Part shown: piece by piece, positions 1 to 29,522 of the stretch
Layout of the letters: each line of letters opens with the position of its first letter
Numbering within the stretch: position 1 is the first letter of the stretch
Sequence record: NC_047754.1
DNA length: 64,000 nucleotides
DNA from: Escherichia phage phiAPCEc03
Direction: 5' to 3' (one strand)
Made by a program: the position numbers and the translations under genes
The notes under the pieces: model-generated
Database searches by the model: none
The model's input: only the letters and a program-made list of their open reading frames with translations
Told to the model about the DNA's origin: nothing

Positions 1-461
1 CTGGCTTTTCTAAGTTCTTTTTCAGCCTGCTCAAGAGTTTTAAAAGTTCCTATGGTAATTCTATTACCATTTACACGTAGTTTTGCTTCGAACTTTCCCT
101 CCCCGCGTTTATATACTCCCTTAACCCCTGTAGACTCATTCTTCCATCCCGAAGAGTTTTTTCCATTCTCTGCATTTGTTGCTTTACGTAAGTTATTCCA
201 CCTATTGTTGAAGGGGTCTTGATCTTTGTGATCAATGAGAAATTCACCTGGGTCTTCTCCTGTCATGTATAGATACGCTACCCGATGGGCCTTATATAAC
301 CCATTATTACCCATTGATAGGGATATTCCTGAACTATTTCTACTACCTGCTGGTTTACCTTTACGACTCCCTGAATTCCAAGTAAATATACCTGCCTCTG
401 GATCATAGTCATATTTTTTCTTATATTCTTCTAATGATAGAAGAGGTTTATGATTTGCCAT
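1..461 (-). CDS. HNH-AP2 homing endonuclease, partial (start codon at 461, C-terminus runs off window edge)
   Basis: Hand translation of minus strand from ATG at 461 gives MANHKPLLSLEEYKKKYDYDPEAGIFTWNSG...YKAHRVAYLYMTGEDPGEFLIDHKDQDPFNNRWNNLRKATNAENGKN...GVKGVYKRGEGKFEAKLRVNGNRITIGTFKTLEQAEKELRKA with no stop to position 1; HNH motif plus AP2-like C-terminal domain; paralogous to ORFs at 40340, 47672, 60851. Absent from ORF track because it is truncated. Confidence 0.6.
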   Translation of the reverse strand, partial: MANHKPLLSLEEYKKKYDYDPEAGIFTWNSGSRKGKPAGSRNSSGISLSMGNNGLYKAHRVAYLYMTGEDPGEFLIDHKDQDPFNNRWNNLRKATNAENGKNSSGWKNESTGVKGVYKRGEGKFEAKLRVNGNRITIGTFKTLEQAEKELRKA

Positions 462-666
462 TTATCTTGAATCTCCTCCGAGAACTTCTTGAGCCATCAT
501 TCCACTCCCGCTCAAACTCCGCACGTTTCTCTTCAAACTTCCGCTCCCTTTCCGCAATCTCCCGCGATACTTCCGCAATATATTTACGATGGCTGTCGAT
601 AGCCGCAGTCATTCCGAAAATTCCCGCAAGTATCCCGATAATAAAAGCAATTATAATACTAAACAT
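448..666 (-). CDS. small membrane protein (N-terminal transmembrane helix, charged C-terminus)
   Basis: 72 aa ORF; hydrophobic N-terminus FSIIIAFIIGILAGIFGMTAAI followed by K/E/R-rich tail; function unknown. Confidence 0.4.
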   Translation of the reverse strand: MFSIIIAFIIGILAGIFGMTAAIDSHRKYIAEVSREIAERERKFEEKRAEFEREWNDGSRSSRRRFKINGKS

Positions 667-853
667 CTAATTCCCTCTCAATTTGCAGAATACGGGTACT
701 ATCACAACGTTGCAGTTCTACTAATTTTTCTATAGCAAATTGTTGCTGCTTTACCTGGGCCTCTAGAGTTTTTAGGCGAACATACGCGTTATAAGAAACA
801 ATGAAAGTTGCCCAGACTAGTATTACTATTAGTGTAGCTACTACTTCCATCAT
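659..853 (-). CDS. small membrane protein (TM helix plus coiled-coil-like tail)
   Basis: 64 aa ORF; MMEVVATLIVILVWATFIVSY hydrophobic segment; start overlaps stop of upstream small ORF (ATGA-type coupling). Confidence 0.4.
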   Translation of the reverse strand: MMEVVATLIVILVWATFIVSYNAYVRLKTLEAQVKQQQFAIEKLVELQRCDSTRILQIERELDV

Positions 854-957
854 TTACGTTTCTCCAGTAATAAAATTTCAACTCTAGCCAAGTGATTATC
901 TAAAATACATTGTCCGATAATAACAACCCCTAGTAATGCAATAATTACCCATTCCAT
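850..957 (-). CDS. very small membrane protein (35 aa)
   Basis: Hand translation MEWVIIALLGVVIIGQCILDNHLARVEILLLEKRK; overlapping stop/start with neighbours; below ORF-track size cutoff. Confidence 0.3.
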   Translation of the reverse strand: MEWVIIALLGVVIIGQCILDNHLARVEILLLEKRK

Positions 958-1085
958 TAAATCCACCCCGCCATAGCTGCTAACCAAAAACCTACGAAAA
1001 TAAAGAATAGGATAGTTCCGAACCCAAAACTATTTATCCAACTCTCATACACCTCTCCGCGTCTATTCTTTCTTTTGTTTGACAT
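957..1085 (-). CDS. very small membrane protein (42 aa)
   Basis: Hand translation MSNKRKNRRGEVYESWINSFGFGTILFFIFVGFWLAAMAGWI; basic N-terminus then hydrophobic helix; TAATG overlap with next ORF. Confidence 0.3.
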   Translation of the reverse strand: MSNKRKNRRGEVYESWINSFGFGTILFFIFVGFWLAAMAGWI

Positions 1086-1261: not shown

Positions 1262-1528
1262 TTACAGGTAATTAGATTGCTCTAGTTTAAATTTACAATC
1301 ACCATATTTAAGGTCAAACTGACTGAGATCCCACCACCCAAATTTAGTACGGAGCTGTACTACTGGAAAGCGATCTCCCTTAATACGAACTTTTTGAACC
1401 TTGAGACCGTAATGTTCTTCTCCCGCACCACCAAAAGATTTTACAAATCCCGTACAAAATGGTTTGGGAGCAGGTGCACAACCAGATAACATAACTACGG
1501 CAACTAGTGCAATTACAAACTTTTTCAT
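1262..1528 (-). CDS. llp: Llp-like lipoprotein (receptor-blocking superinfection-exclusion lipoprotein)
   Basis: 88 aa; signal peptide MKKFVIALVAVVMLSGC with lipobox LSG-C; divergent from the receptor-binding protein gene as in T5 llp/oad; own sigma70-like promoter. Confidence 0.75.
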   Translation of the reverse strand: MKKFVIALVAVVMLSGCAPAPKPFCTGFVKSFGGAGEEHYGLKVQKVRIKGDRFPVVQLRTKFGWWDLSQFDLKYGDCKFKLEQSNYL

Positions 1529-1559
1529 ATTTATCTCTCCATTTCTAATTTATGAATCT

Positions 1560-1588
1560 ATTATAGCAAAATAGAGGGATGAAAGCAA
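1560..1588 (-). promoter_or_regulatory. sigma70-type promoter for llp (-35 TTGCTT, 17 nt spacer, -10 TATAAT)
   Basis: Minus-strand reading: TTGCTT-tcatccctctattttgc-TATAAT then GGAGAG Shine-Dalgarno before the llp ATG. Confidence 0.6.
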
Positions 1589-1613
1589 ATACATTTTTAT
1601 AATAGGAGATTAT

Positions 1614-3371
1614 ATGGGTTTTTTCGCTGGAAAGTATAGCGATGGTAAGACCGTACTATCTTTAAATACTGAATCTGGGGGTGACATTAATCGTCACTAT
1701 AGTCCAAATAATAATAGTATTTTTCATAGTGATATGCCATTTGTCCTAGTTGATGGTACTTACGAGGCTGGGTTAGGTGATGCCGGAAATGGGTTTTTCG
1801 TATGTCAGATGCCTCCTGATATAGTAAATATTAAATCTAATGATCCTGGTAGAGTTATACTAACTGCTATTGAAATTAACGGCACTCACAGAGCTTTTCT
1901 TAATGGTACTCAGAGTAAGGTTGGTCAAACTATAGTTGCCACTCAAGCTGATCCCTTTAGATCTTTTGCTAGTGTTTCTCAAACTAGTGGATTTGCATTT
2001 GGTAATAGTCTAGCATCTGGAACTTATAATTATAATTCATCGATAGGGCACGAAGAATCTATCTCTAGGAGTGGCACAGGGGGTACTACATTACATAGTA
2101 CCTACCATGGGATAGTTAGGCCCGGTGCGGGAGCTCCTGTAGGTGTTACTGTTGCAGAAGCTTTTGCACAATTAGGGTTTCCTACTAACAGTAGCACAGT
2201 ACCTGTAGATGGGAATAACCCGTACTATTGGGATCCTGGATGGATGTCGCCTCTAGGAGCAGCACATAGAGGGCATGATTGGTTTTATGTTTGCAATTCT
2301 AATATACGTGGGTACGGTGGGGTTAGGCAAGGGCTCCCAGGTAATGTAAATACTATGTACCACGACGGCGGGAACAGATTTGTTTGTAGGGGATCTACTA
2401 CTAATCTAGCTAACCAGTCGGGTGACTCTACAATACTACAGGATTGGTATAATATAACTCCTACTAAGGTTATTTGGTATGTTCTTAACTTAAGGTACTC
2501 AAATGGCGGTATGAGTATTTCCGGCAATCCCTTTACTGGTTCTGATATTCTTATATCTCCTTCTAATTTCATAATTAAAGGGGTAAGTCTCCCGAATACT
2601 GGATATAAATTTATAAATCAGAATGCTTTTGGTAACCTAGGTTACCGTCCTGATATGGAGTATATAGGGAATAACGCAGCGTATACTGGGGTTTTTGGGG
2701 ATACCACGGCAAGGTGTGAACTTGTAGGGTCTAGTAATGGAGGATTATGGTCTCCTGTAGACTATGGTGGAGCTAAATCACAGATTAGCATTTATAGGTT
2801 CGGAGTAGGTAAACAGTGGTATGTAAACTCTAACGATAATACTATTGGTAACGAGCATGGAGTTGTTTGGGGACCATCAGCAGTTCCACTGCGACTTTTT
2901 GGTGGAAATGTAGGTAGTTCTTATATGGGAGATGATATTACTCCTAGCTACCCAGGAACGGGTGATAGATACGTTGGTTTATCAACTATTGGGCTAGGTA
3001 TACCAGGCGGAAATGCTACAGTAATTCTTACTACTGAAGTTATATCAGGTAATCTTAATTGTGCGGGTGTTCCAGCTAATACATGGAATAACGGTGTGTT
3101 TCAAGTGCAAGGAAGAAGAGCATATAGCTATAGCGGCGGGGATGCAATATTCCACCAGATTTTAACGCTACCTGTGGGCTATCTAGTACCTTTTCATACT
3201 ACATCTGCTTTTAGATATACACCTAACAATGCTCTAAGTAGAAACAGTTTTATATATACAGTTAAAAATCTAGGAAATGGAAATGTGGAGTTAGGGGTAG
3301 TTATGCACGTGAGTTTGGGTAGTGCAGTTTTCCTACCTAGATTAAGAGTAACAGTTCAACGCCTTACCTAA
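1614..3371 (+). CDS. receptor-binding tail protein (T5 pb5/Oad-like)
   Basis: 585 aa; N-terminus [24 protein letters not shown] and C-terminus RVTVQRLT resemble my recollection of T5 pb5; Gly/Asn-rich; SD AGGAG; adjacent divergent llp. Confidence 0.7.
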
Positions 3372-3381
3372 AGGAGGAAAT

Positions 3382-3864
3382 ATGGCAAATGATGTATTAG
3401 TACCAGATCTTATGTCCCCTGAAGGGATGGATGTGATTGAAGCTTATTTACAGTGCGGCAGCGATGTGCCTTCTGCCGCACGTAGTCTTGGAATGTCCGA
3501 AATTGCTTTCCGAGATATTATGAATCGTAGTGAAGTTAAGAACTACTTAAATGATATTTTTATGGAAAGTGGATTCCGTAACAGGGATCGTTTGTTTGGT
3601 GTTCTAGATGAAGTTATTAAACGTAAACTAGAGGAACTGGAAGAAACTGGCATGGGTTCTGACCAGGATATTATGGATATTCTCTGGAAAGCACACAAGA
3701 TGAAGATGGAAGAGATGAAAATGATGGTAGAGTTAGAAAAAGCTAAAGCTGCCGTTCGAGCTCCTGCTAATCAGACCAATATCCAGAATAACATTATTGC
3801 TGGAGCTGGGGATCAAAACTACATGGACTTAATTACTTCCCTGGCTACTGGAGGTAAGAAATAA
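3382..3864 (+). CDS. putative terminase small subunit
   Basis: 160 aa ORF immediately upstream of and abutting large terminase (stop/start overlap); helix-turn-helix-like N-terminal region; SD AGGAGG. Confidence 0.5.
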
Positions 3865-5180
3865 TGGAAGTATCAAGACCCTACGTTAACACAGTAGATG
3901 TTATTGATTTCGGAATAGACAAACGTTTCTTTCGTTTACCTGTTTCAGGAATACTAGCACAAGAAGGTATTACACCTAATGGTCCTCAAATAGCGATTAT
4001 CAATGCGCTAGAAGACCCTAGACATCGTTTTGTAACGGCGTGTGTATCGCGCCGTGTGGGCAAGTCCTTTATAGCATATACACTTGGATTCCTAAAATTG
4101 CTGGAACCCAATGTGAAGGTACTAGTAGTTGCTCCTAACTACTCACTGGCCAACATCGGATGGTCTCAGATTCGTGGTCTTATTAAGAAGTATGGCCTAC
4201 AAACTGAACGTGAGAACGCTAAAGATAAAGAGATTGAGTTAGCTAATGGTTCTCTGTTTAAACTAGCTTCCGCGGCTCAGGCTGACTCCGCAGTTGGACG
4301 TTCATATGATTTTATCATTTTCGATGAGGCGGCAATTTCCGATGTGGGTGGTGATGCCTTTAGGGTTCAGTTACGTCCTACTCTAGATAAACCTAATTCT
4401 AAAGCTCTATTTATTTCCACCCCTCGTGGAGGTAACTGGTTTAAAGAGTTTTACGCCTATGGATTTGATGATACGTTACCTAACTGGGTGTCTATTCATG
4501 GTACATACCGTGATAACCCTCGTGCTGACCTGAATGACATTGAGGAAGCACGTCGTACAGTTAGTAAAAACTACTTCCGCCAGGAATACGAGGCCGACTT
4601 CTCTGTATTCGAAGGCCAGATCTTTGATACCTTTAATGCTATCGATCATGTTAAAGACCTCAAAGGTATGCGTCACTTCTTTAAAGATGATGAAGCATTC
4701 GAAACATTGCTTGGTATTGACGTTGGTTATCGTGATCCTACAGCAGTTCTTACTATTAAGTACCACTATGATACAGATACCTACTATGTATTAGAAGAGT
4801 ACCAGCAGGCAGAGAAAACTACAGCGCAACATGCTGCGTATATTCAGCACTGTATAGATCGTTATAACGTAGATCGTATCTTCGTTGACTCCGCGGCTGC
4901 CCAGTTCCGTCAGGACTTAGCTTATGAACATGAAATTGCATCAGCTCCAGCTAAAAAATCTGTCCTAGACGGTCTAGCATGCTTGCAAGCGCTATTCCAG
5001 CAAGGCAAGATTATTGTAGATGCTTCATGTTCCTCATTAATCCATGCGTTGCAGAACTATAAATGGGACTTCCAAGAAGGTGAAGAAAAATTATCACGTG
5101 AAAAACCACGTCATGATGCTAACTCTCACCTCTGTGATGCGCTGCGCTATGGAATTTACTCTATTTCCCGTGGTAAATAA
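3864..5180 (+). CDS. terminase large subunit
   Basis: 438 aa, same length as T5 large terminase; ATPase N-terminal region and nuclease C-terminal region; position before portal. Confidence 0.85.
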   Translation: MEVSRPYVNTVDVIDFGIDKRFFRLPVSGILAQEGITPNGPQIAIINALEDPRHRFVTACVSRRVGKSFIAYTLGFLKLLEPNVKVLVVAPNYSLANIGWSQIRGLIKKYGLQTERENAKDKEIELANGSLFKLASAAQADSAVGRSYDFIIFDEAAISDVGGDAFRVQLRPTLDKPNSKALFISTPRGGNWFKEFYAYGFDDTLPNWVSIHGTYRDNPRADLNDIEEARRTVSKNYFRQEYEADFSVFEGQIFDTFNAIDHVKDLKGMRHFFKDDEAFETLLGIDVGYRDPTAVLTIKYHYDTDTYYVLEEYQQAEKTTAQHAAYIQHCIDRYNVDRIFVDSAAAQFRQDLAYEHEIASAPAKKSVLDGLACLQALFQQGKIIVDASCSSLIHALQNYKWDFQEGEEKLSREKPRHDANSHLCDALRYGIYSISRGK

Positions 5181-5294
5181 ATAAATATAGGAAGGGATAC
5201 TACTCAGTTGGTATCCCATTCCTGCATTTTAAAATCCCCTTTACAAATTCGATACGATTATGTATACTATATTCATACAGTTGAGGAGAACACT

Positions 5295-5732
5295 ATGGCA
5301 AGCAATATAAAATATAAACGCGATGCTATATCCCTTATGAGAGACGGAATAAAAAGTCAATATAAAAAAGACTCTCAATGTGCTATCTGCGGTTGTGCTG
5401 AAGAATTAGAGCTTCATCATTACCATACGGTGTCTCTACTAGTTAAAAAATTTGCTAAAGAACTCCAATTGGATTTCACTGACGAAGAAACAGTCCTTTC
5501 AAATAGGACGGCATTCTATGATCGATATAGGCATGAGCTAGTAGAAGACACTGTTACCCTTTGTGTACACCATCACCAATTATTACATAAGGTTTACACA
5601 AAAGAACCTCCTTTATTTTCTGCTAATAAGCAAAAAGTGTGGGTTCAAAAGCAGAAAGACAAATTACAGAATCCTCAAGAAAAGACACAAGTCAAGACTG
5701 AAACAAAATCAGGATTCGCAAGGTTCTTATAA
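5295..5732 (+). CDS. HNH endonuclease (Cys/His-box type)
   Basis: CAICGCAEELELHHYH ... CVHHHQLLH metal-binding pattern; ATG at 5295 preceded by GAGGAG SD (ORF track's upstream start at 5208 is unlikely); sits between terminase and portal. Confidence 0.6.
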   Translation: MASNIKYKRDAISLMRDGIKSQYKKDSQCAICGCAEELELHHYHTVSLLVKKFAKELQLDFTDEETVLSNRTAFYDRYRHELVEDTVTLCVHHHQLLHKVYTKEPPLFSANKQKVWVQKQKDKLQNPQEKTQVKTETKSGFARFL

Positions 5733-21776: not shown

Positions 21777-23833
21777 TGATTTCAAATAATGCACCAGCCA
21801 AAATGGTCTTAAATAGTATAATGACTGGATATACTTTGGCTTATGTCCAGCACTCCATTTATACTGATTATGATGTTATTGGTAGATCTTTTTGGTTAAA
21901 AATAGGAGAAAGTATAGATAGACGTGATTACACCGGTATAGATACTTTCTTCGTAATGATTAATAATCTAACCCCCTCTACCTCCTATGAGATTCAGGGG
22001 GCTTTCTATGACTCAATTATTGACTCAGAGTTACTGGAAGCTAAGATTGGTATCAACCTCTCTAATGAAACTAATTTTAGAACAAAGGAAAAGCCAATAA
22101 TTGTTGCAGCAAGATCTGAATCAGAACCCGTCGACGTTGGTGTTGGTGCTCCAATAGTTGTTGTAGAGACTGCTGGTGAAGCTAGTTACTGCACTATTGA
22201 ATTAAAAAGTACTGCATCAGAAGACAGTGAATGGGTTAAGTATTATATAGGTGCGCTGGGACCTACTATCAAATTTGGTGGTGTTCCTGTTGGAGACTAT
22301 AAGATCAGAATATCTGGTCAAGTTACGATGCCAGATGGTGTTACAGTTGACTCATCTGGCTATTATGAATATCCTAGCGTTTTCACTGTAGCTTATAATT
22401 TCGTACCACCTACTGCACCTACTAACATTGCCTTTAAAACTGCACGAATCGCAGACGGTAAGGAACGATATGATGTTAGAATAGAATGGGACTGGGAACG
22501 TGGTGCTGGTGCTAATGTCCGTGAATTTCTGGTTACTTATATAAACTCTGAAGAATACGCTAAGACTGGTTGGGCTAAAGCTCAAAAGATAAACGTTGGG
22601 GCTGCTAGAGCTGCAACAATTATATCATTCCCATGGAAAGTTGAGCATACTTTTAAGGTATCATCAATTGCCTGGGGACCAAATAAGCAAGATATAACAG
22701 AATCAGCTCCTGTAACATTTATATTGAATGAAGATACTCCTCTAGACAACAGCTTTGTCAATGAGACGGGTATTGATGTTAATTATGCCTTTATTAAGGG
22801 CAGCATGAAAGATGGAGAAATCTGGAGACAGACATTCTTAATCGATGCAGCTACTGGTGCTATTAACATTGGTCTGCTAGATGAAGAAGGAAAAGCACCT
22901 ATTTCTTTTGACCCTATAAACCGTGTTGTTAACGTTGATGGTAAAGTAATTACTAGAGATATTAATGCTGCGAACTTTATCATGACTAACTTATCTGGTA
23001 AGGATAACCCAGCAATTTACACTCAAGGTAAATCTTGGGGGGATAATAACTCCGGTATTTGGATGGGTATGGATAATACCTCTGCCAAAGCTAAGTTAGA
23101 CATTGGTAATGCCACACAGTGGATTCGTTATGATGGTGATGTGCTACGTATTTCTAGTGGAGTAGTTATTGGAACTCCTAATGGCGATGTAGATCTTGGT
23201 ACTGGTATGCAAGGTAAGCAAACAGTATTTGTTTATAAGTTAGCAACATCTCTACCTGCTAAACCACTAGAACAAGATTATCCGCCTCCTGGTTGGTCAA
23301 AAACTCCACCTAACCGTACAGATATGACACAAAATATCTATGCCACTACAGGTACACTTGATCCCGTTACTAACAAACTTCTTGAAGGTACTAGCTGGTC
23401 TGATGTAGTTCAGTGGAGTGGTACTGAGGGTACTATAGGACATGATGGACAACGTGGTCCTGGGATGTACTCCTTAGGTATTCCTGGTCTTGGAGGCTGG
23501 GATGATGGACAAGCTAATGCCTTCTTCCAGAATAACTTTGGTAGTCCTCCTGTTAGATATGATGTATTAACCGAATTTAATAGTAATGCTCCACAATCAG
23601 CATTTACCAGACAATGGAATGGATCTGGGTGGGTGAACCCTGCAATGGTTCTTCATGGGAACATGATTGTTAATGGAACAGTGACGGCAGATAAAATTGT
23701 AGCAGGAAATGCTTTCTTGTCTCAAATTGGTGTTAATATCATTTATGATAGAAATGCTGCGTTATCCTGGAATCCTGAGGCATACTACAAGATGAAGATA
23801 GACCTAAATAGTGGGTATATCCATATAAGGTAA
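21761..23833 (+). CDS. central straight fibre / tail tip protein (T5 pb4-like)
   Basis: 690 aa; 16 nt overlap with hub gene; size close to T5 pb4. Confidence 0.65.
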   Translation: MGIHLMISNNAPAKMVLNSIMTGYTLAYVQHSIYTDYDVIGRSFWLKIGESIDRRDYTGIDTFFVMINNLTPSTSYEIQGAFYDSIIDSELLEAKIGINLSNETNFRTKEKPIIVAARSESEPVDVGVGAPIVVVETAGEASYCTIELKSTASEDSEWVKYYIGALGPTIKFGGVPVGDYKIRISGQVTMPDGVTVDSSGYYEYPSVFTVAYNFVPPTAPTNIAFKTARIADGKERYDVRIEWDWERGAGANVREFLVTYINSEEYAKTGWAKAQKINVGAARAATIISFPWKVEHTFKVSSIAWGPNKQDITESAPVTFILNEDTPLDNSFVNETGIDVNYAFIKGSMKDGEIWRQTFLIDAATGAINIGLLDEEGKAPISFDPINRVVNVDGKVITRDINAANFIMTNLSGKDNPAIYTQGKSWGDNNSGIWMGMDNTSAKAKLDIGNATQWIRYDGDVLRISSGVVIGTPNGDVDLGTGMQGKQTVFVYKLATSLPAKPLEQDYPPPGWSKTPPNRTDMTQNIYATTGTLDPVTNKLLEGTSWSDVVQWSGTEGTIGHDGQRGPGMYSLGIPGLGGWDDGQANAFFQNNFGSPPVRYDVLTEFNSNAPQSAFTRQWNGSGWVNPAMVLHGNMIVNGTVTADKIVAGNAFLSQIGVNIIYDRNAALSWNPEAYYKMKIDLNSGYIHIR

Positions 23834-23839
23834 TAAATA

Positions 23840-24262
23840 ATGAGTACTGAAAATAGAGTTATAGACTTAGTAATAGATGAGAAAGTACCTTATGGTCTAA
23901 TGATGCAATTCTTAGATGTTGATGATAGTACTTATCCCCCTACAAACACCCCTGTTAACTTAACAGGGTATTCTCTAAAGGGTACTATAAAGAATAGCCT
24001 TGATGAGAATGCGGAAACTTTGGCATCTTTTACTACTAAAATTATTGATGCTGCTCAAGGTGCTATAGCTATAAGTTTACCTGTAGAGGCGGTAGATAAT
24101 ATTGGTGAAAAAGCCACCAAAGAGAGAGATAAGTATAACCCTCGCCAACGTTTTGCAGGATACTATGATATAATTATGACACGAGATGTCATAGGATCAG
24201 CTATTAGCTCTTTTCGTATAATGGAGGGTAAAGTATTTATCAGTGATGGGGTAACTAGATAA
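23840..24262 (+). CDS. putative collar protein (T5 p132-like)
   Basis: 140 aa; immediately upstream of lateral tail fibre gene. Confidence 0.45.
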
Positions 24263-26709
24263 TGGCAATAACTACTAAGATTATTGTACAACAAATATTA
24301 AATATTGATGATACTAAAGCTACTGCTAGTAAATTTCCTAGATACACAGTAACTCTTGGAAACTCTATTAGCTCTATTACTGCTATAGAGTTAGTATCCT
24401 CTATAGAGGCCGCTGCTAAATCTGCTGCGGCTGCAAAAGATTCTGAAATAGCTGCTAAAACCTCAGAACTTAATGCTAAGAACTCTGAACAGGAAGCTGC
24501 TATTTCTGCTGGAGCTTCAGAAGCTTCTGCTAATCAGTCTGCTACCTCTGCTACTCAGTCCGCAGCGTCAGCCAATAAGTCTGCAGAATCCGCTGCCGCA
24601 GCTAAAATATCCGAGACTAATGCGAAGACTAGTGAAACTAATGCGAAGACTAGTGAAACTAACGCGAAGACTAGTGAAACTAATGCTGACGCATCAGCTG
24701 CTGCTGCAAAAATTAGTGAGACTAATGCAAAGGCAAGTGAGACTAATGCAGCTCAATCAGCTGCTGATGCAAAACTTAGCGAGGGTAACGCAAAGGTCAG
24801 TGAGACTAATGCAGCTCAATCAGCAGCTGATTCTAGCGGTTTTAGGAATGAGGCGGAAATATTTTCTGGGCAAGCTGCTGCATCGGCATCTGCGGCAAAA
24901 ATCTCTGAAACCAATGCAAAAACCTCGGAAACAAAAGCTAAGGCTAGTGAAACTAATGCTGCGGGATCTGCAACTTCTGCTAGCCAATCTGTAGCTACTA
25001 TTCAAGGACTTAAATCAGATGTCGAACAGTTAAAATCTGATACCCAGGACATTAAAAATAGTGCTATAACAGAGACAACAGCTTTAAAAGCGGATGTCGA
25101 ACAGTTAAAATCTGATACCCAGGCCATTAAAAATAGCGCTATAACAGAGACAACAGCTTTAAAAGCGGATGTTGAGCAACTAAAAACAGATACACAAGGT
25201 ATTAAGGATAGCGCGGTATCTGAGACAACAACTTTAAAAGATCAAGCTGCTGCTTCTGCTGCACAAGCAGGTAATAGTGCTGTTGAGGCCGGGCAACAAG
25301 CTAGCAATGCTGCTGGTAGTGCAAATAGCTCTAAAGTAGAAGCAGACCGTGCAAAGGCAGAAGCAGACCGTGCGGAAGTTGCAGCTAATAGGGATCCTGA
25401 TCTTCAACCATTCCCTGACGTATGGATTCCATTTAATGACTCGCTTGATATGCTCGCAGGTTATTCACCCGGCTATAAGAAAATAACAGTTGGTGAAGAT
25501 GTTATTACAATGCCTTCTGATAAGGTTGTTAGTTTCACGCGTGCGTCAAATGCAACATACATAAATAAGCATGGTGAATTTTGTATTGCTAATATCGATG
25601 AACCCAGATTTGAAAAGCAAGGACTCTTGATTGAAGGCCAGAGGACAAATCACATTACTTTCAGTAATGACCCCGCTTCACTAAATACAGATAAGCACCG
25701 TAGTGATGTTACTTATAATGTTGATAAGTATGGTTTTGCATATGCAACGGCTACAGCTAACGAAAATTCACATGGTGAGTACCCTTCATTATTTTATTGT
25801 AAAACCGTGAATGCAATCAACTGTCAGCAAAATGAATATGTTTCTTTATCTATACGAGTAAAGGCAAACTCGGATATCTATATCACCCCACAATTTTATT
25901 TAGTAGGTAAGGATGGAGGTCTTATTCTCGGTGCTAGATCTTTCATAAGTTGCGAAACCGGCGAAGTTTCTTCTGTAGTAGAAGGGAGGGGGACTATAGC
26001 ACATAGAATATATAGAGAAGACAACGGATGGTTGAAAGTTGAAGCTATGTGTAAATTTGTAGAACGTGGAGGTAGTTCTATTGGATCTGTAAATTATTGT
26101 CGGAATAATGATCAACCTTCGCAAGTTGGGGATACAATATCATTTTGTACTCCGCAATTTGAAAAGGGTTTTTGTGCATCCTCCTTCATTATTACGGGAA
26201 GCACTCCTGCAACAAGGGCTCTGGATTATGTTACTATACCTGCAAGAAATAATTTCTCAGGGACGAATATTTCATTCCTTGCTGAGGTAAGTATCAACTG
26301 GAATAGCTTTCAATTAGATAATATATACCCAATGATAGTGGATAACAACCACTACTTCGTAAGAGGAAAAGCATTTGTTGCGGAATTTGACAGAACCTCC
26401 GTTACACCTTACACGTATGTGGTAACTGAGGATGGATCAACTATTCTGTCCAGAGGTTATTCATTTGAAAAACAATTTTCTCCACATGTATTTGGTTTTA
26501 TTCTCAGTGGCGATGTAGAGGTCACCTCGTTTGTTAATGGTAATAGTGGTGAGACCTCACACGGTTCTACCTGGAAAGGAACGGACTCGGACGCACTAGT
26601 AGAAATAGGCGGTAGACTTTCAGATTCAACTAAATTGTATGGTCATATTCGTAACCTTAGAATATGGAATAGAGTATTAACAGATAGTCAAATGCGGGAG
26701 AAAGTTTAA
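24262..26709 (+). CDS. lateral tail fibre protein A (repeat-rich shaft, C-terminal LamG/concanavalin-like lectin-type domain)
   Basis: 815 aa; N-terminal half made of SETNAK and 25-aa DVEQLKSDTQxIKNSAITETTALKA repeats; C-terminal domain ends ...LYGHIRNLRIWNRVLTDSQMREKV, resembling the characteristic C-terminal strand of LamG-type domains. Confidence 0.7.
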   Translation: MAITTKIIVQQILNIDDTKATASKFPRYTVTLGNSISSITAIELVSSIEAAAKSAAAAKDSEIAAKTSELNAKNSEQEAAISAGASEASANQSATSATQSAASANKSAESAAAAKISETNAKTSETNAKTSETNAKTSETNADASAAAAKISETNAKASETNAAQSAADAKLSEGNAKVSETNAAQSAADSSGFRNEAEIFSGQAAASASAAKISETNAKTSETKAKASETNAAGSATSASQSVATIQGLKSDVEQLKSDTQDIKNSAITETTALKADVEQLKSDTQAIKNSAITETTALKADVEQLKTDTQGIKDSAVSETTTLKDQAAASAAQAGNSAVEAGQQASNAAGSANSSKVEADRAKAEADRAEVAANRDPDLQPFPDVWIPFNDSLDMLAGYSPGYKKITVGEDVITMPSDKVVSFTRASNATYINKHGEFCIANIDEPRFEKQGLLIEGQRTNHITFSNDPASLNTDKHRSDVTYNVDKYGFAYATATANENSHGEYPSLFYCKTVNAINCQQNEYVSLSIRVKANSDIYITPQFYLVGKDGGLILGARSFISCETGEVSSVVEGRGTIAHRIYREDNGWLKVEAMCKFVERGGSSIGSVNYCRNNDQPSQVGDTISFCTPQFEKGFCASSFIITGSTPATRALDYVTIPARNNFSGTNISFLAEVSINWNSFQLDNIYPMIVDNNHYFVRGKAFVAEFDRTSVTPYTYVVTEDGSTILSRGYSFEKQFSPHVFGFILSGDVEVTSFVNGNSGETSHGSTWKGTDSDALVEIGGRLSDSTKLYGHIRNLRIWNRVLTDSQMREKV
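24616..24678 (+). repeat. 21 bp tandem repeat x3 inside fibre gene
   Basis: actaatgcgaagactagtgaa repeated three times (third copy one mismatch), encoding TNAKTSE units. Confidence 0.8.
25018..25242 (+). repeat. 75 bp tandem repeat x3 inside fibre gene
   Basis: Unit starting gatgtcgaacagttaaaatctgatacccagg recurs at 25018, 25093, 25168 with increasing divergence. Confidence 0.8.
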
Positions 26710-26973
26710 GTGAAAGATATTAATTTACAATTCAAGGATGAAAAACATTATCTGGATGTTGTCGTTGATAGTGGGTGGCTTAAGACAAACTACGGTAACG
26801 TGTTTATAGATGAAATTGGTTTTATCCCTGTGGTAGACGACCCTAAAAGTAAAACCCCTGCTATTATTGGTAAAGAAGGTTATTACATAAATATAAGGGT
26901 AGGAGATAATATAGACTTGTCAGACATCGAACAATTCATTATTAAGAATCCCGATGTACGCAAATGGGCATAA
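26710..26973 (+). CDS. hypothetical small protein between the two fibre genes (GTG start)
   Basis: 87 aa ORF starting at GTG directly after the fibre A stop; no recognisable motif. Confidence 0.3.
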   Translation: MKDINLQFKDEKHYLDVVVDSGWLKTNYGNVFIDEIGFIPVVDDPKSKTPAIIGKEGYYINIRVGDNIDLSDIEQFIIKNPDVRKWA

Positions 26974-26983
26974 GAGGTGATCA

Positions 26984-28726
26984 ATGACTACTTATACTAA
27001 TATCCCCCAGGATATTACAAAACTTAAAGACGAAAAGATGGATAAAAACAACAATTTATCCGATCTTGCAGACCGTGCAGCAGCATGGTTAAATGTGCGT
27101 CCTATTGGGTCCACCCCTCTTGCGGGGGATCCTGTTGGGGACTATGATGCCGCAACTAAACGTTGGGTAGAGAATAAGATTAACACCGGTACAGTCGGTC
27201 CCACTATGAATGGTGTTATGAATTACGGTGTTGGTGATTTCCACCTTCGAGATAGTCGTGCGTATATCCAGCCGTACGAGGTGGTTTCTGATGGTCAGCT
27301 TCTTAACAGGGCTGACTGGCCGGAGCTTTGGGCATACGCTCAAAGGGTTGGTGTTATAGAGGATTCGGTATGGTTAGCTTATAAATTCCAGCGTGGAAAA
27401 TACTCTAATGGTGACGGAGCAACAACTTTTCGTGTTCCAGATAAGAATGGGGTGCAGGAGGGATCAATACGTGCTCTTTATGGCCGTGGAGATGGCGGGA
27501 ATAGTGGTGCAAATGGGCAACTGTTCGAATCCGCTGCGCCTAATATTACAGGCTTTTTCACCACATATTCCGCTCAAACTTACGGCCAGGTATTAGGTAT
27601 GACAGGTGGTTCTTTTACCACAAGTAATAAAATATTTCCGGAAGGAAAAGGAGACGGTATACCCCCAGGCACAGCGCCGCTCGCTGGGCGTTATAATACC
27701 TGCGACTTCAATGCCTCAATGTCAAGTCCGATTTACGGGGCATCAACTGATGAGATTCTTACACGAAACTTTGTCGGCGTGTGGGTAATACGGGCGTCCG
27801 GTGGTTTCGTTGCGGCAAATACATCATGGAGTGTAATAAACGCTGATGCTGCCAAACCTCCTACTGGTACAGTTGTAAGGGGTGGTAGTGTGAAGTCAGA
27901 ATACAAGATTGGCACAACTACTACGCATCAAGCATATCTGCAATCTTACGGAAAGATTGATGGATTGACGTCTGAACAAGGTGCAGTTATATCAAACGGG
28001 GTTCAAGAGTGGTCATTTAATCAAGCTGGGACTTTGTACTTCCCAAGCGCAGAAACTCAAATTGGCACGCTAAGGTCTGATGGCGCGCTACAGGTTAACG
28101 CATACGTACGAGCAAAAGACTTCGTTGCACAGCCATTAAACTCTGTTGGAGTTGCCGCTATAGAAAGAAACGCCATCAGAATGATTAACTACGCGAATGT
28201 GTCAGAAGGGTATTATGTAAACACTATAAGCGGCGATTGGTACGATGGAAGCTGGATATTTGGTGGTATTCGCTCCGGTAATAGGTTGTTAGATAGGGTA
28301 CAGCTTAATGTCTATAACGGAATCGGAGGAGCTGCATCTTATATTTTTGGGACGGATGGTATAGCAAAAGGTCAAGAATGGAGAAACTTATCCGACAAAC
28401 GCATTAAAAGTAATATTGAGCGTATAAACGATCCACTATCTAAGATGCGAAACATTAAAGGGGTTAAATGGGTACTAGAAACAAACGGCTCAGTTGGGTA
28501 TGGATTTATTGCTCAGGATGTAGAGAAAGACTTTCCTGAAGCAGTATCTGAAACTCAGTCATCACCTGTTACTCTGCGCGACGGTTCGACGTTGGATAAC
28601 ATAAAATCTGTTAATATGCCAGGTGTAGCAGCTGCACTGCACCACGAGGCGATACTTGCTTTGATGGAAAAGGTGGAGAACCTAGAAGCAGAATTAGCTG
28701 CATTAAAAGAAGCGAATGGTTCCTAA
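26984..28726 (+). CDS. lateral tail fibre protein B (phage tail-collar-type N-terminal domain, C-terminal intramolecular chaperone/peptidase S74 domain)
   Basis: 580 aa; N-terminal region has collar-domain pattern (GQLLNRADWPELWAYAQ...GDGATTFRVPDKNG); C-terminal ~120 aa (LSDKRIKSNIERINDP...GVKWVLETNGSVGYGFIAQDVEKDFPEAV...LEAELAALKEANGS) matches auto-cleaving chaperone domains of fibres and tailspikes; SD AGAGGTG. Confidence 0.7.
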   Translation: MTTYTNIPQDITKLKDEKMDKNNNLSDLADRAAAWLNVRPIGSTPLAGDPVGDYDAATKRWVENKINTGTVGPTMNGVMNYGVGDFHLRDSRAYIQPYEVVSDGQLLNRADWPELWAYAQRVGVIEDSVWLAYKFQRGKYSNGDGATTFRVPDKNGVQEGSIRALYGRGDGGNSGANGQLFESAAPNITGFFTTYSAQTYGQVLGMTGGSFTTSNKIFPEGKGDGIPPGTAPLAGRYNTCDFNASMSSPIYGASTDEILTRNFVGVWVIRASGGFVAANTSWSVINADAAKPPTGTVVRGGSVKSEYKIGTTTTHQAYLQSYGKIDGLTSEQGAVISNGVQEWSFNQAGTLYFPSAETQIGTLRSDGALQVNAYVRAKDFVAQPLNSVGVAAIERNAIRMINYANVSEGYYVNTISGDWYDGSWIFGGIRSGNRLLDRVQLNVYNGIGGAASYIFGTDGIAKGQEWRNLSDKRIKSNIERINDPLSKMRNIKGVKWVLETNGSVGYGFIAQDVEKDFPEAVSETQSSPVTLRDGSTLDNIKSVNMPGVAAALHHEAILALMEKVENLEAELAALKEANGS

Positions 28727-28813
28727 CAAATTTGAGCAAGAATTAATCGAACTGAAAAACTTGTGAACCAGCTCAATAATCCAGATAGATAATTATATAC
28801 GCATAGTAAAAAG

Positions 28814-28844
28814 AAACCCCAGTGGACAAAATCCGCTGGGGTTT
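28814..28844. terminator. bidirectional intrinsic terminator at late/early module boundary
   Basis: Hairpin AAACCCCAG-tggacaaaatccg-CTGGGGTTT flanked by A-run and T-run; lies between convergent gene blocks. Confidence 0.7.
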
Positions 28845-28849
28845 TTATA

Positions 28850-29059
28850 TTACTTGCTTCTACAACCTTCTATAATACCAAGATTATAGATAGTTAATAG
28901 TATTTTTAAATGCTCATTATCAGTATTAGTACAAAATTCTACAAAACCTTCAGGATCCCAGAAAGTAACATTACCTTCTTTATCTGTTTTTAGCACAAAC
29001 GTTTCTGGTTTAGTAGTTTTAATCTGATAAGCTGACATACTAGTATCAATACCTACCAT
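28850..29059 (-). CDS. hypothetical protein
   Basis: ORF track gives 28850..29113 (87 aa) overlapping dUTPase; internal Met at 29059 (MVGIDTS...) avoids overlap. Confidence 0.35.
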   Translation of the reverse strand: MVGIDTSMSAYQIKTTKPETFVLKTDKEGNVTFWDPEGFVEFCTNTDNEHLKILLTIYNLGIIEGCRSK

Positions 29060-29075
29060 ATTAGGATCACTAAAA

Positions 29076-29522
29076 TTATTTGCTTCCTGAGCTTCCAAAC
29101 CCGCCTTCCCCACGATCAGTTTCCCCTAGTTCATCAACAATTTCAAAATTATGTGTTGAGTAGTGTGGTACTACTACCAACTGGCAAAGTCTTTCAAAAT
29201 TTTCCAGAGTTTGAATTTCAGAACCGTAGTTATAAAGGTTCATCTTAATAGTTCCACGATAGTCTGAGTCGATCACTCCTGCGGTATTTGCGATCATCAG
29301 ATGACGCTTACCTAAAGAGCTGCGAGGAACTACCAAACCGAACCAACCTCGCGGAATTTCCACCGCGACACCGGTGTCAATCATTAGGGATTTGCCTGGT
29401 GCAATAGCGCGTAAATCTGCAGCAGGGTTAGTACCAAAGAATGCTCGCAGGTCCATACCTGCGGCATCTTTGGAACCAATCTTAGGCATACAATCTGGAT
29501 GAGTTAATTTAATTTTAATCAT
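29076..29522 (-). CDS. dut: dUTP diphosphatase (dUTPase)
   Basis: 148 aa; conserved dUTPase motifs AGMDLRA, GVIDSDYRG and C-terminal RGEGGFGSSG. Confidence 0.85.
   Translation of the reverse strand: MIKIKLTHPDCMPKIGSKDAAGMDLRAFFGTNPAADLRAIAPGKSLMIDTGVAVEIPRGWFGLVVPRSSLGKRHLMIANTAGVIDSDYRGTIKMNLYNYGSEIQTLENFERLCQLVVVPHYSTHNFEIVDELGETDRGEGGFGSSGSK

Follow-up and report, generated by a model that had tools for sequence, protein, structure and literature searches.

A short lipoprotein gene lies head-to-head with a gene for a receptor-binding protein in the DNA of Escherichia phage phiAPCEc03 (sequence record NC_047754.1). This arrangement raises two questions, namely which outer membrane protein the phage uses as its terminal receptor, and whether the lipoprotein blocks that same receptor. 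Positions given below refer to the window, that is, the whole stretch of 64,000 nucleotides that was analyzed.

Organization of the locus

The two open reading frames (ORFs), taken from the ORF list and the sequence, occupy positions 1262..1528 on the minus strand and 1614..3371 on the plus strand. The gap between them (1529-1613) measures exactly 85 bp, so the divergent pair of lipoprotein and pb5-like genes with an 85-bp intergenic region, as put forward in the preliminary description, is present as claimed. The locus and its right-hand neighbors comprise the following features.

1262..1528, minus strand: llp, precursor of a predicted BF23-type receptor-blocking (superinfection exclusion or lytic conversion) lipoprotein, 88 amino acids (ORF list, Pfam LPAM_1, PHROG 1119)
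1529..1613, no strand assigned: divergent control region, 85 bp (relaxed hexamer scan, five-phage alignment, T5 and BF23 annotation)
1614..3371, plus strand: receptor-binding tail-tip protein (RBP) of the pb5/Oad/Hrs family, 585 amino acids, a BtuB-clade variant of the AKFV33 / IrisVonRoten / VSe12 type (PHROG 4815, PDB)
3382-3864, plus strand: terminase small subunit gene, terS (PHROG 3802 / PHROG 2 and Pfam Terminase_6N/6C, given jointly with terL)
3864-5180, plus strand: terminase large subunit gene, terL (same matches, given jointly with terS)

A comparison of records finds the order llp(-), RBP(+), terS(+), terL(+) also in T5, BF23, DT571/2, JLBYU40, and Cit2. The terminase genes (3382..5180) lie outside the llp-RBP module; in T5-like phages they are the conserved anchor on the right by which the RBP locus is defined. 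Over the 2.5-kb region, identity to many Tequintavirus genomes amounts to 94-96%, and by its sequence the window is assigned to a T5-like phage (Tequintavirus). Neither the Llp ORF nor the RBP ORF is a chance reading frame, because both have PHROG or PDB matches and relatives in 398 (Llp) and 539 (RBP) phage records.

Outside the llp-RBP module the genome is mosaic. At its left end, the window carries an HNH endonuclease region that is missing from Bas32, BF23, and DT571/2, and the lateral tail fiber region of phiAPCEc03 resembles that of FFH_1.

The receptor-binding protein and its predicted receptor

Along its entire length (residues 1-585), the RBP aligns with PHROG 4815 ('receptor binding tail protein', E 1.3e-274), and it matches the solved T5 pb5 chains 8b14_B and 8a8c_B with an E-value of 1e-50. 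In a tblastn comparison it is 30% identical to T5 pb5 over 100% of the query, and it is shorter, with 585 versus 640 amino acids. The preliminary description had called the gene pb5-like and its product shorter than T5 pb5, and both statements hold. By itself, the shorter length is not what truly argues for a different receptor. A 585-amino-acid pb5 was first described in 2012 for AKFV33, where it was called atypical and its receptor was then unknown.

Among individual phages, identity to the phiAPCEc03 RBP is 99.3% for Salmonella phage VSe12, 98.6% for IrisVonRoten (Bas32), corresponding to 8 substitutions, 97.8% for Cit2, 96.9% for DaisyDussoix (Bas31), and 95.0% for AKFV33. The proteins of chee24 and JLBYU40 are likewise 585 amino acids long and fall within the range of 95-99.3% spanned by VSe12, Bas32, Bas31, and AKFV33. 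The Hrs proteins of DT571/2 and BF23 (595 amino acids) are 73.5% and 67% identical, respectively. Alignment with the T5 and BF23 proteins, proposed earlier as a check on the receptor, thus places 30% identity to T5 pb5 beside 67% identity to BF23 Hrs. By sequence, the RBP groups with the BtuB-specific clade, consisting of BF23 Hrs, DT57C, EPS7, SPC35, and Bas26-34, and not with FhuA-type pb5.

Receptor data exist for phages with nearly the same protein. The BASEL paper states that the essential receptors of all its phages were determined experimentally by plating on single-gene mutants, and its S5 Table lists BtuB as the terminal receptor of Bas31 and Bas32. A later paper terms IrisVonRoten BtuB-dependent. 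Since the phiAPCEc03 RBP shows 98.6% and 96.9% identity to its counterparts in Bas32 and Bas31, both listed with BtuB, the receptor of this RBP class is BtuB. BF23 and DT57C/DT571-2 use BtuB as well, in the case of DT57C as judged from btuB mutations in resistant clones (PMC4728585). Furthermore, a 2026 preprint describes 23 BtuB-binding Demerecviridae phages whose RBP, encoded at the same locus, is about 30% identical to pb5. BtuB, the vitamin B12 transporter, is the predicted terminal receptor of phiAPCEc03, an assignment made through sequence identity to these proteins. The different outer membrane receptor suggested in the preliminary description can thereby be given a name.

FhuA and FepA were also considered as receptors. 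The 30% identity to pb5 and the BtuB data for near-identical RBPs speak against both, and they were rejected.

The Llp lipoprotein and its sequence

Llp consists of 88 amino acids and begins with MKKFVIALVAVVMLSGC. Its signal peptide comprises residues 1-16, MKKFVIALVAVVMLSG, and is followed by a cysteine. It shows an MKK n-region, a hydrophobic core, and the lipobox L-S-G-C, which assigns lipid attachment to Cys17; the residue at +2 is alanine. The match to Pfam LPAM_1 reaches 23.8 bits, above the family's gathering score of 20. The signal peptide and the LSG-C lipobox noted in the first description of the locus are therefore both in place. Under the Lol sorting rule, a lipoprotein with alanine at +2 is expected in the outer membrane.

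The mature protein has 72 amino acids and contains, besides Cys17, the residues Cys25 and Cys78, the latter near the C-terminus. All three cysteines, as well as G16, are invariant in 12 of the 12 Llp family members. The AF2 model of Llp, with a mean pLDDT of 83.5, depicts a small five-stranded β-structure with a C-terminal helix. Pfam holds no family for mature Llp, T5 Llp, or the RBP. A search of a large protein collection with Llp returned 11 clusters, all 57-99% identical to the query, and yielded no distant homologs with which to deepen the profile.

Compared to BF23 Llp, the protein is identical at 87 of 88 positions, the sole difference being V11/A11 within the signal peptide. Position 11 is also the only variable residue among phiAPCEc03, BF23, DT571/2, IrisVonRoten (Bas32), JLBYU40, and Cit2. 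As this residue sits in the signal peptide, the mature 72-residue protein is 100% identical in these phages. For Bas32, Bas31, VSe12, AKFV33, chee24, and JLBYU40, Llp is 98.9% identical, again with a difference in the signal peptide only. At the nucleotide level, the published llp cloning primer BF23Llp42-F matches positions 1500-1540(-) exactly, with no mismatch.

Exclusion of BtuB-dependent phages by Llp

The activity of the mature protein is documented. Golomidova et al. placed DT57C llp on a plasmid and found that leaky expression lowered the plating of DT57C, DT571/2, and BF23 by a factor of more than 100, with no effect on T5 (PMC4728585). Because mature DT57C Llp is identical to mature phiAPCEc03 Llp, BtuB-directed exclusion, or lytic conversion, is shown for exactly this mature protein. 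The tested exclusion targets carried BF23- and DT57C-type RBPs, which are only 67-73.5% identical to the 585-amino-acid RBP. According to later citations (PMC4728585, PMC10644984), the first account of the module came from Mondigler et al. 2006 and concerned BF23.

These data, carried over by sequence identity, support Llp as the cognate receptor blocker of BtuB-dependent T5-like phages. The cognate-blocker role had been part of the preliminary description, and it agrees with a mature part identical to the BF23 and DT57C lipoproteins, which exclude BF23 and DT57C but not T5. Taken together, the locus is read here as the module with which a T5-like phage achieves host recognition and lytic conversion, in a BF23-type, BtuB-specific version, with a probability of about 0.93.

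An exchanged RBP allele beside a constant llp

In a sliding-window comparison, nucleotide identity to BF23 and DT571/2 is 96-100% across llp, the spacer, and terS, and only within the RBP ORF (about 1640 to 3370) does it fall sharply, to 41-83%. Compared with IrisVonRoten, identity is 91-100% over the entire interval. As the drop is confined to the RBP ORF, the RBP gene represents an exchanged allele, and Golomidova et al. noted the same cassette pattern between DT57C and BF23 (PMC4728585). One llp is thus common to at least three RBP alleles, which are 67-73.5% identical.

The patches of the RBP that are least conserved relative to BF23 comprise amino acids 104-132, 148-213, 240-257, and 528-551. 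In pb5, the loops inserting into FhuA are L1 (tip Gln115), L2 (tip Phe170), and L4 (570-590). The least conserved patches appear to coincide with these three loops, the alignment being weak in the loops themselves.

This pattern could also be read differently. The RBP allele may have diverged at its receptor-contact loops such that it uses even Llp-locked BtuB and escapes BF23-type exclusion, in which case the adjacent llp would not block the very phage that carries it. Mature Llp is invariant, yet the RBP has diverged by 27-33% from the variants that were tested, its lowest identity aligns with pb5 loops L1, L2, and L4, and we found no published exclusion test of the 585-amino-acid variant. 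However, DT57C Hrs is similarly divergent from BF23 Hrs (69.6% identity), and a common Llp excludes both. Moreover, an identical llp is kept beside the 585-amino-acid RBP in about 100 genomes, which argues that the pairing works, and it is simpler to assume that the loops have adapted to BtuB polymorphism among hosts. We consider such an escape very unlikely. We give correspondingly little credence to its broader form, in which one mature Llp beside at least three RBP alleles would reflect an arms race and the 585-amino-acid allele would be an exclusion-escape variant instead of a product of simple host adaptation.

Proposed mechanism of receptor blocking

Under the preferred reading of a BtuB-specific recognition and exclusion module, the 585-amino-acid protein would be a monomeric RBP at the tip of the straight central tail fiber. 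It would bind the TonB-dependent transporter BtuB irreversibly, and this binding would trigger DNA ejection. Early in infection, the divergent promoter would drive synthesis of the 88-amino-acid Llp, which would then be exported, receive its lipid at Cys17, and reach the outer membrane, as expected with Ala at +2. There it would bind BtuB and make it unusable for BtuB-dependent T5-like phages. Blocked BtuB would exclude superinfecting phages and spare the progeny from being lost on the debris of lysed cells.

The structural side of this proposal is drawn from T5. T5 Llp acts from the periplasm, where it binds the FhuA plug in a non-native conformation; reverse allostery then folds the extracellular loops EL7 and EL8 inward over the pb5 site, and the termini of T5 Llp are joined by a Cys11-Cys58 disulfide (PMC9586334). 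The same study reports that AF2 models of T5 Llp are inaccurate (PMC9586334). By analogy with the T5 Llp-FhuA crystal structure, we postulate that Llp would sit on the periplasmic face of BtuB, gripping a non-native plug conformation, and that this grip would cause the extracellular loops to fold inward over the RBP binding site. The Llp termini may be joined by a Cys25-Cys78 disulfide, the counterpart of Cys11-Cys58 in T5 Llp. We favor periplasmic jamming of BtuB as the probable mechanism, the solved structure being of FhuA with T5 Llp only. A 2026 paper makes the same suggestion for the Cor-like proteins of BtuB-using Markadamsvirinae.

Probable relationship of Llp to T5 Llp and Cor

Llp matches PHROG 1119, labelled 'Cor superinfection exclusion protein', over residues 1-82 (E 3.8e-26), and T5 Llp matches the same cluster over its full length (E 1.1e-19). 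The Cor-like lipoprotein of the Drexlerviridae phage vojen is 36% identical to Llp over nearly the whole length and 27% identical to T5 Llp. In a global alignment, Llp and T5 Llp share 23-24% identity. The cysteine layout, with lipidated Cys17, Cys25, and Cys78 near the C-terminus, follows that of T5 Llp, and the vojen protein forms a bridge between the two. The T5 Llp chains in the PDB (e.g., 8a60_B) were missed both by phmmer with Llp and by a 12-member HMMER profile, and Foldseek with the AF2 model of Llp gave nothing significant. Sequence alone does not establish homology of Llp and T5 Llp, because hhalign of the Llp family profile against T5 Llp aligns only residues 1-29, covering the signal peptide and the first cysteines. 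The literature terms the T5 and BF23 Llps non-homologous. We regard a common fold and origin of Llp with T5 Llp and Cor as likely, and the often repeated view of the T5 and BF23 Llps as unrelated is probably too strong.

This likely kinship bears on a further alternative, namely that Llp belongs to the general Cor type and blocks FhuA, like the Cor proteins of T1, phi80, and N15. The Cor label of PHROG 1119, the name 'Cor superinfection exclusion protein' in many RefSeq records, and the 36% identity to the Drexlerviridae Cor-like protein all favor it. The label, however, is inherited from a remote-homology cluster that also holds T5 Llp, and it names a family and not a target. The identical mature Llp gives no protection against FhuA-dependent T5 and does protect against BtuB-dependent BF23 and DT57C (PMC4728585). 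We consider an FhuA-directed Llp very unlikely, slightly more so than an exclusion-escape allele.

Similarities to classical Cor lipoproteins (T1, phi80, N15, and the Drexlerviridae Cor cassette) are membership in PHROG 1119 and the character of a small outer membrane lipoprotein that blocks a TonB-dependent transporter. Classical Cor differs in that its target is FhuA and its gene lies downstream of gpJ with two membrane-protein genes. In contrast, the predicted target of phiAPCEc03 Llp is BtuB, its partner is a pb5-type RBP, and the module lacks accessory membrane-protein genes.

Comparison with known modules and implications

The BF23 hrs-llp module (OR083247) shares with that of phiAPCEc03 its gene order and orientation, the 85-bp spacer, the position upstream of terS and terL, an identical mature Llp, the near-identical llp, spacer, and terS, and the BtuB receptor class. 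The two differ in the RBP allele. The T5 pb5 (oad)-llp module, represented by the structures 8B14/8A8C (FhuA-pb5) and 8A60 (FhuA-Llp), differs in its receptor, FhuA as against the predicted BtuB, in its 640-amino-acid pb5, and in that T5 is not excluded by BF23-type Llp (PMC4728585). The phiAPCEc03 locus is a BF23-type BtuB hrs-llp module with the AKFV33/IrisVonRoten RBP allele, a combination that is already known from about 100 sequenced phages and holds no new biology.

For annotation, the analysis offers a firm call of BtuB as the predicted receptor of phiAPCEc03 and of Llp as a predicted BtuB-directed superinfection-exclusion lipoprotein. The call also matters for the design of phage cocktails, since such phages would cross-exclude other T5-like phages that depend on BtuB and would select for mutants in btuB. 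A by-product concerns Citrobacter phage Cit2, for which the published FhuA assignment (PMC12980165) conflicts with the deposited sequences.

The Cit2 report is the basis of the least probable reading, in which RBPs of the 585-amino-acid class bind FhuA like pb5, the BtuB-type Llp is mismatched, and recognition and exclusion are decoupled. It gives 96.9% identity between the RBPs of Cit2 and T5 and infers that Cit2 uses FhuA while carrying a BtuB-type Llp (PMC12980165), and the Cit2 RBP is 97.8% identical to that of phiAPCEc03. However, the deposited Cit2 protein shares only 30.6% identity with T5 pb5, as against 98.1% with its counterpart in BtuB-dependent Bas32, the paper's own Cit2 identities to BF23 (66.7%) and DT57C (73.2%) fit the BtuB clade, and the BASEL listing of BtuB for Bas31 and Bas32 speaks against FhuA use. 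A mix-up of references seems to underlie the Cit2 claim, and 'T5_ev219', which has a phiAPCEc03-type RBP, is a possible source of the confusion.

The divergent control region

For the BtuB-specific module, early synthesis of Llp would depend on a promoter within the 85-bp spacer. The default consensus promoter and terminator scan listed no promoter in this spacer and gave fewer promoter-like sites than shuffled sequence. A candidate on the llp strand appears only when the -35 is relaxed. In this relaxed hexamer scan it consists of a -35 TTGCTT (1588-1583) and, separated from it by 17 nt, a perfect -10 TATAAT (1565-1560) with a TG extension, and the ribosome-binding site GGAGAG (1540-1535) follows before the ATG. 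On the RBP strand, a -10-like TATTAT (1559-1564) overlaps the llp -10 back to back, and a ribosome-binding site AGGAG is found at 1604-1608.

In a five-phage alignment, the promoter block is conserved in BF23, DT571/2, and IrisVonRoten, and in T5 the -10 is conserved. The T5 record annotates a putative early promoter, T5P41, on the llp side and a late promoter, T5P42, on the RBP side of this region; in the BF23 record, predicted promoters of both classes, early and late, stand on the same respective sides. It is plausible from these motifs and annotations that the 85-bp spacer carries the llp promoter.

Receptor assignment of Citrobacter phage Cit2

The published receptor assignment of Citrobacter phage Cit2 disagrees with its deposited receptor-binding protein (RBP), a discrepancy assessed through the identities of the deposited sequences at the following loci:

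1614-3371 (+), window: RBP gene
813-2570, OP745948: RBP locus in the Cit2 discrepancy

An identity of 96.9% between the RBPs of Cit2 and T5 has been stated, and Cit2 was inferred to enter through FhuA while carrying a BtuB-type Llp, described as "decoupled" (PMC12980165). By sequence comparison, however, the deposited Cit2 RBP shares only 30.6% identity with the FhuA-binding pb5 of T5, compared to 98.1% with the RBP of the BtuB-dependent phage Bas32. Judged from these sequence identities, the published FhuA inference looks like a reference mix-up.

Candidate llp and RBP promoters

Read on opposite strands, the same bases (1559-1565) give the candidate -10 hexamers of both divergent promoters, TATAAT for llp and TATTAT for the RBP gene. 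This block is kept even in T5, despite very different T5 coding sequences on both sides.

A lipoprotein as a probable link between the two Llp types

4001-4228, phage vojen (NC_049824): Drexlerviridae "Cor" lipoprotein gene, adjoining the gpJ-linked RBP locus

According to the literature, T5 Llp and BF23-type Llp are non-homologous. In sequence comparison, vojen Cor shares 27% identity with the former and 36% with the latter, a probable link between the two types.

Left end and small ORFs

448-1085 (-), window: four small ORFs of 42-72 aa after llp, mostly hydrophobic

T5 ORF148-151 are the counterparts of these four ORFs. In JLBYU40, the homologue of one of them bears the annotation of a second "putative receptor blocking protein", a label for which support was sought and none found. 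The left end itself (1-466) probably represents a mobile endonuclease insertion, located between the terminal repeat and the llp region. It diverges from BF23, DT571/2 and IrisVonRoten and matches phages 8sent1748, Shivani, VAH1 and ESCO40, in which an annotated HNH homing endonuclease adjoins small membrane-protein genes.

Other modules and mosaicism

5208-5732, window: ORF with Cys/His motifs (CAICGC...HHYH...CVHHHQLLH), between terL and the portal gene
23800-29500, window: lateral tail fibre region, with one ORF of 815 aa and one of 580 aa

BF23 carries a gene annotated "nicking endonuclease" at the position of the first of these. Since the ORF spans 174 aa from its listed TTG start, compared to ~145 aa for the BF23 product, its true start is probably an internal ATG.

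The genome is a mosaic, its best relatives varying by module. The lateral tail fibres are of the two-protein AKFV33 type, in contrast to the single pb1 type of T5, and the nearest relative of this region is the O157:H7 phage FFH_1 (96%).
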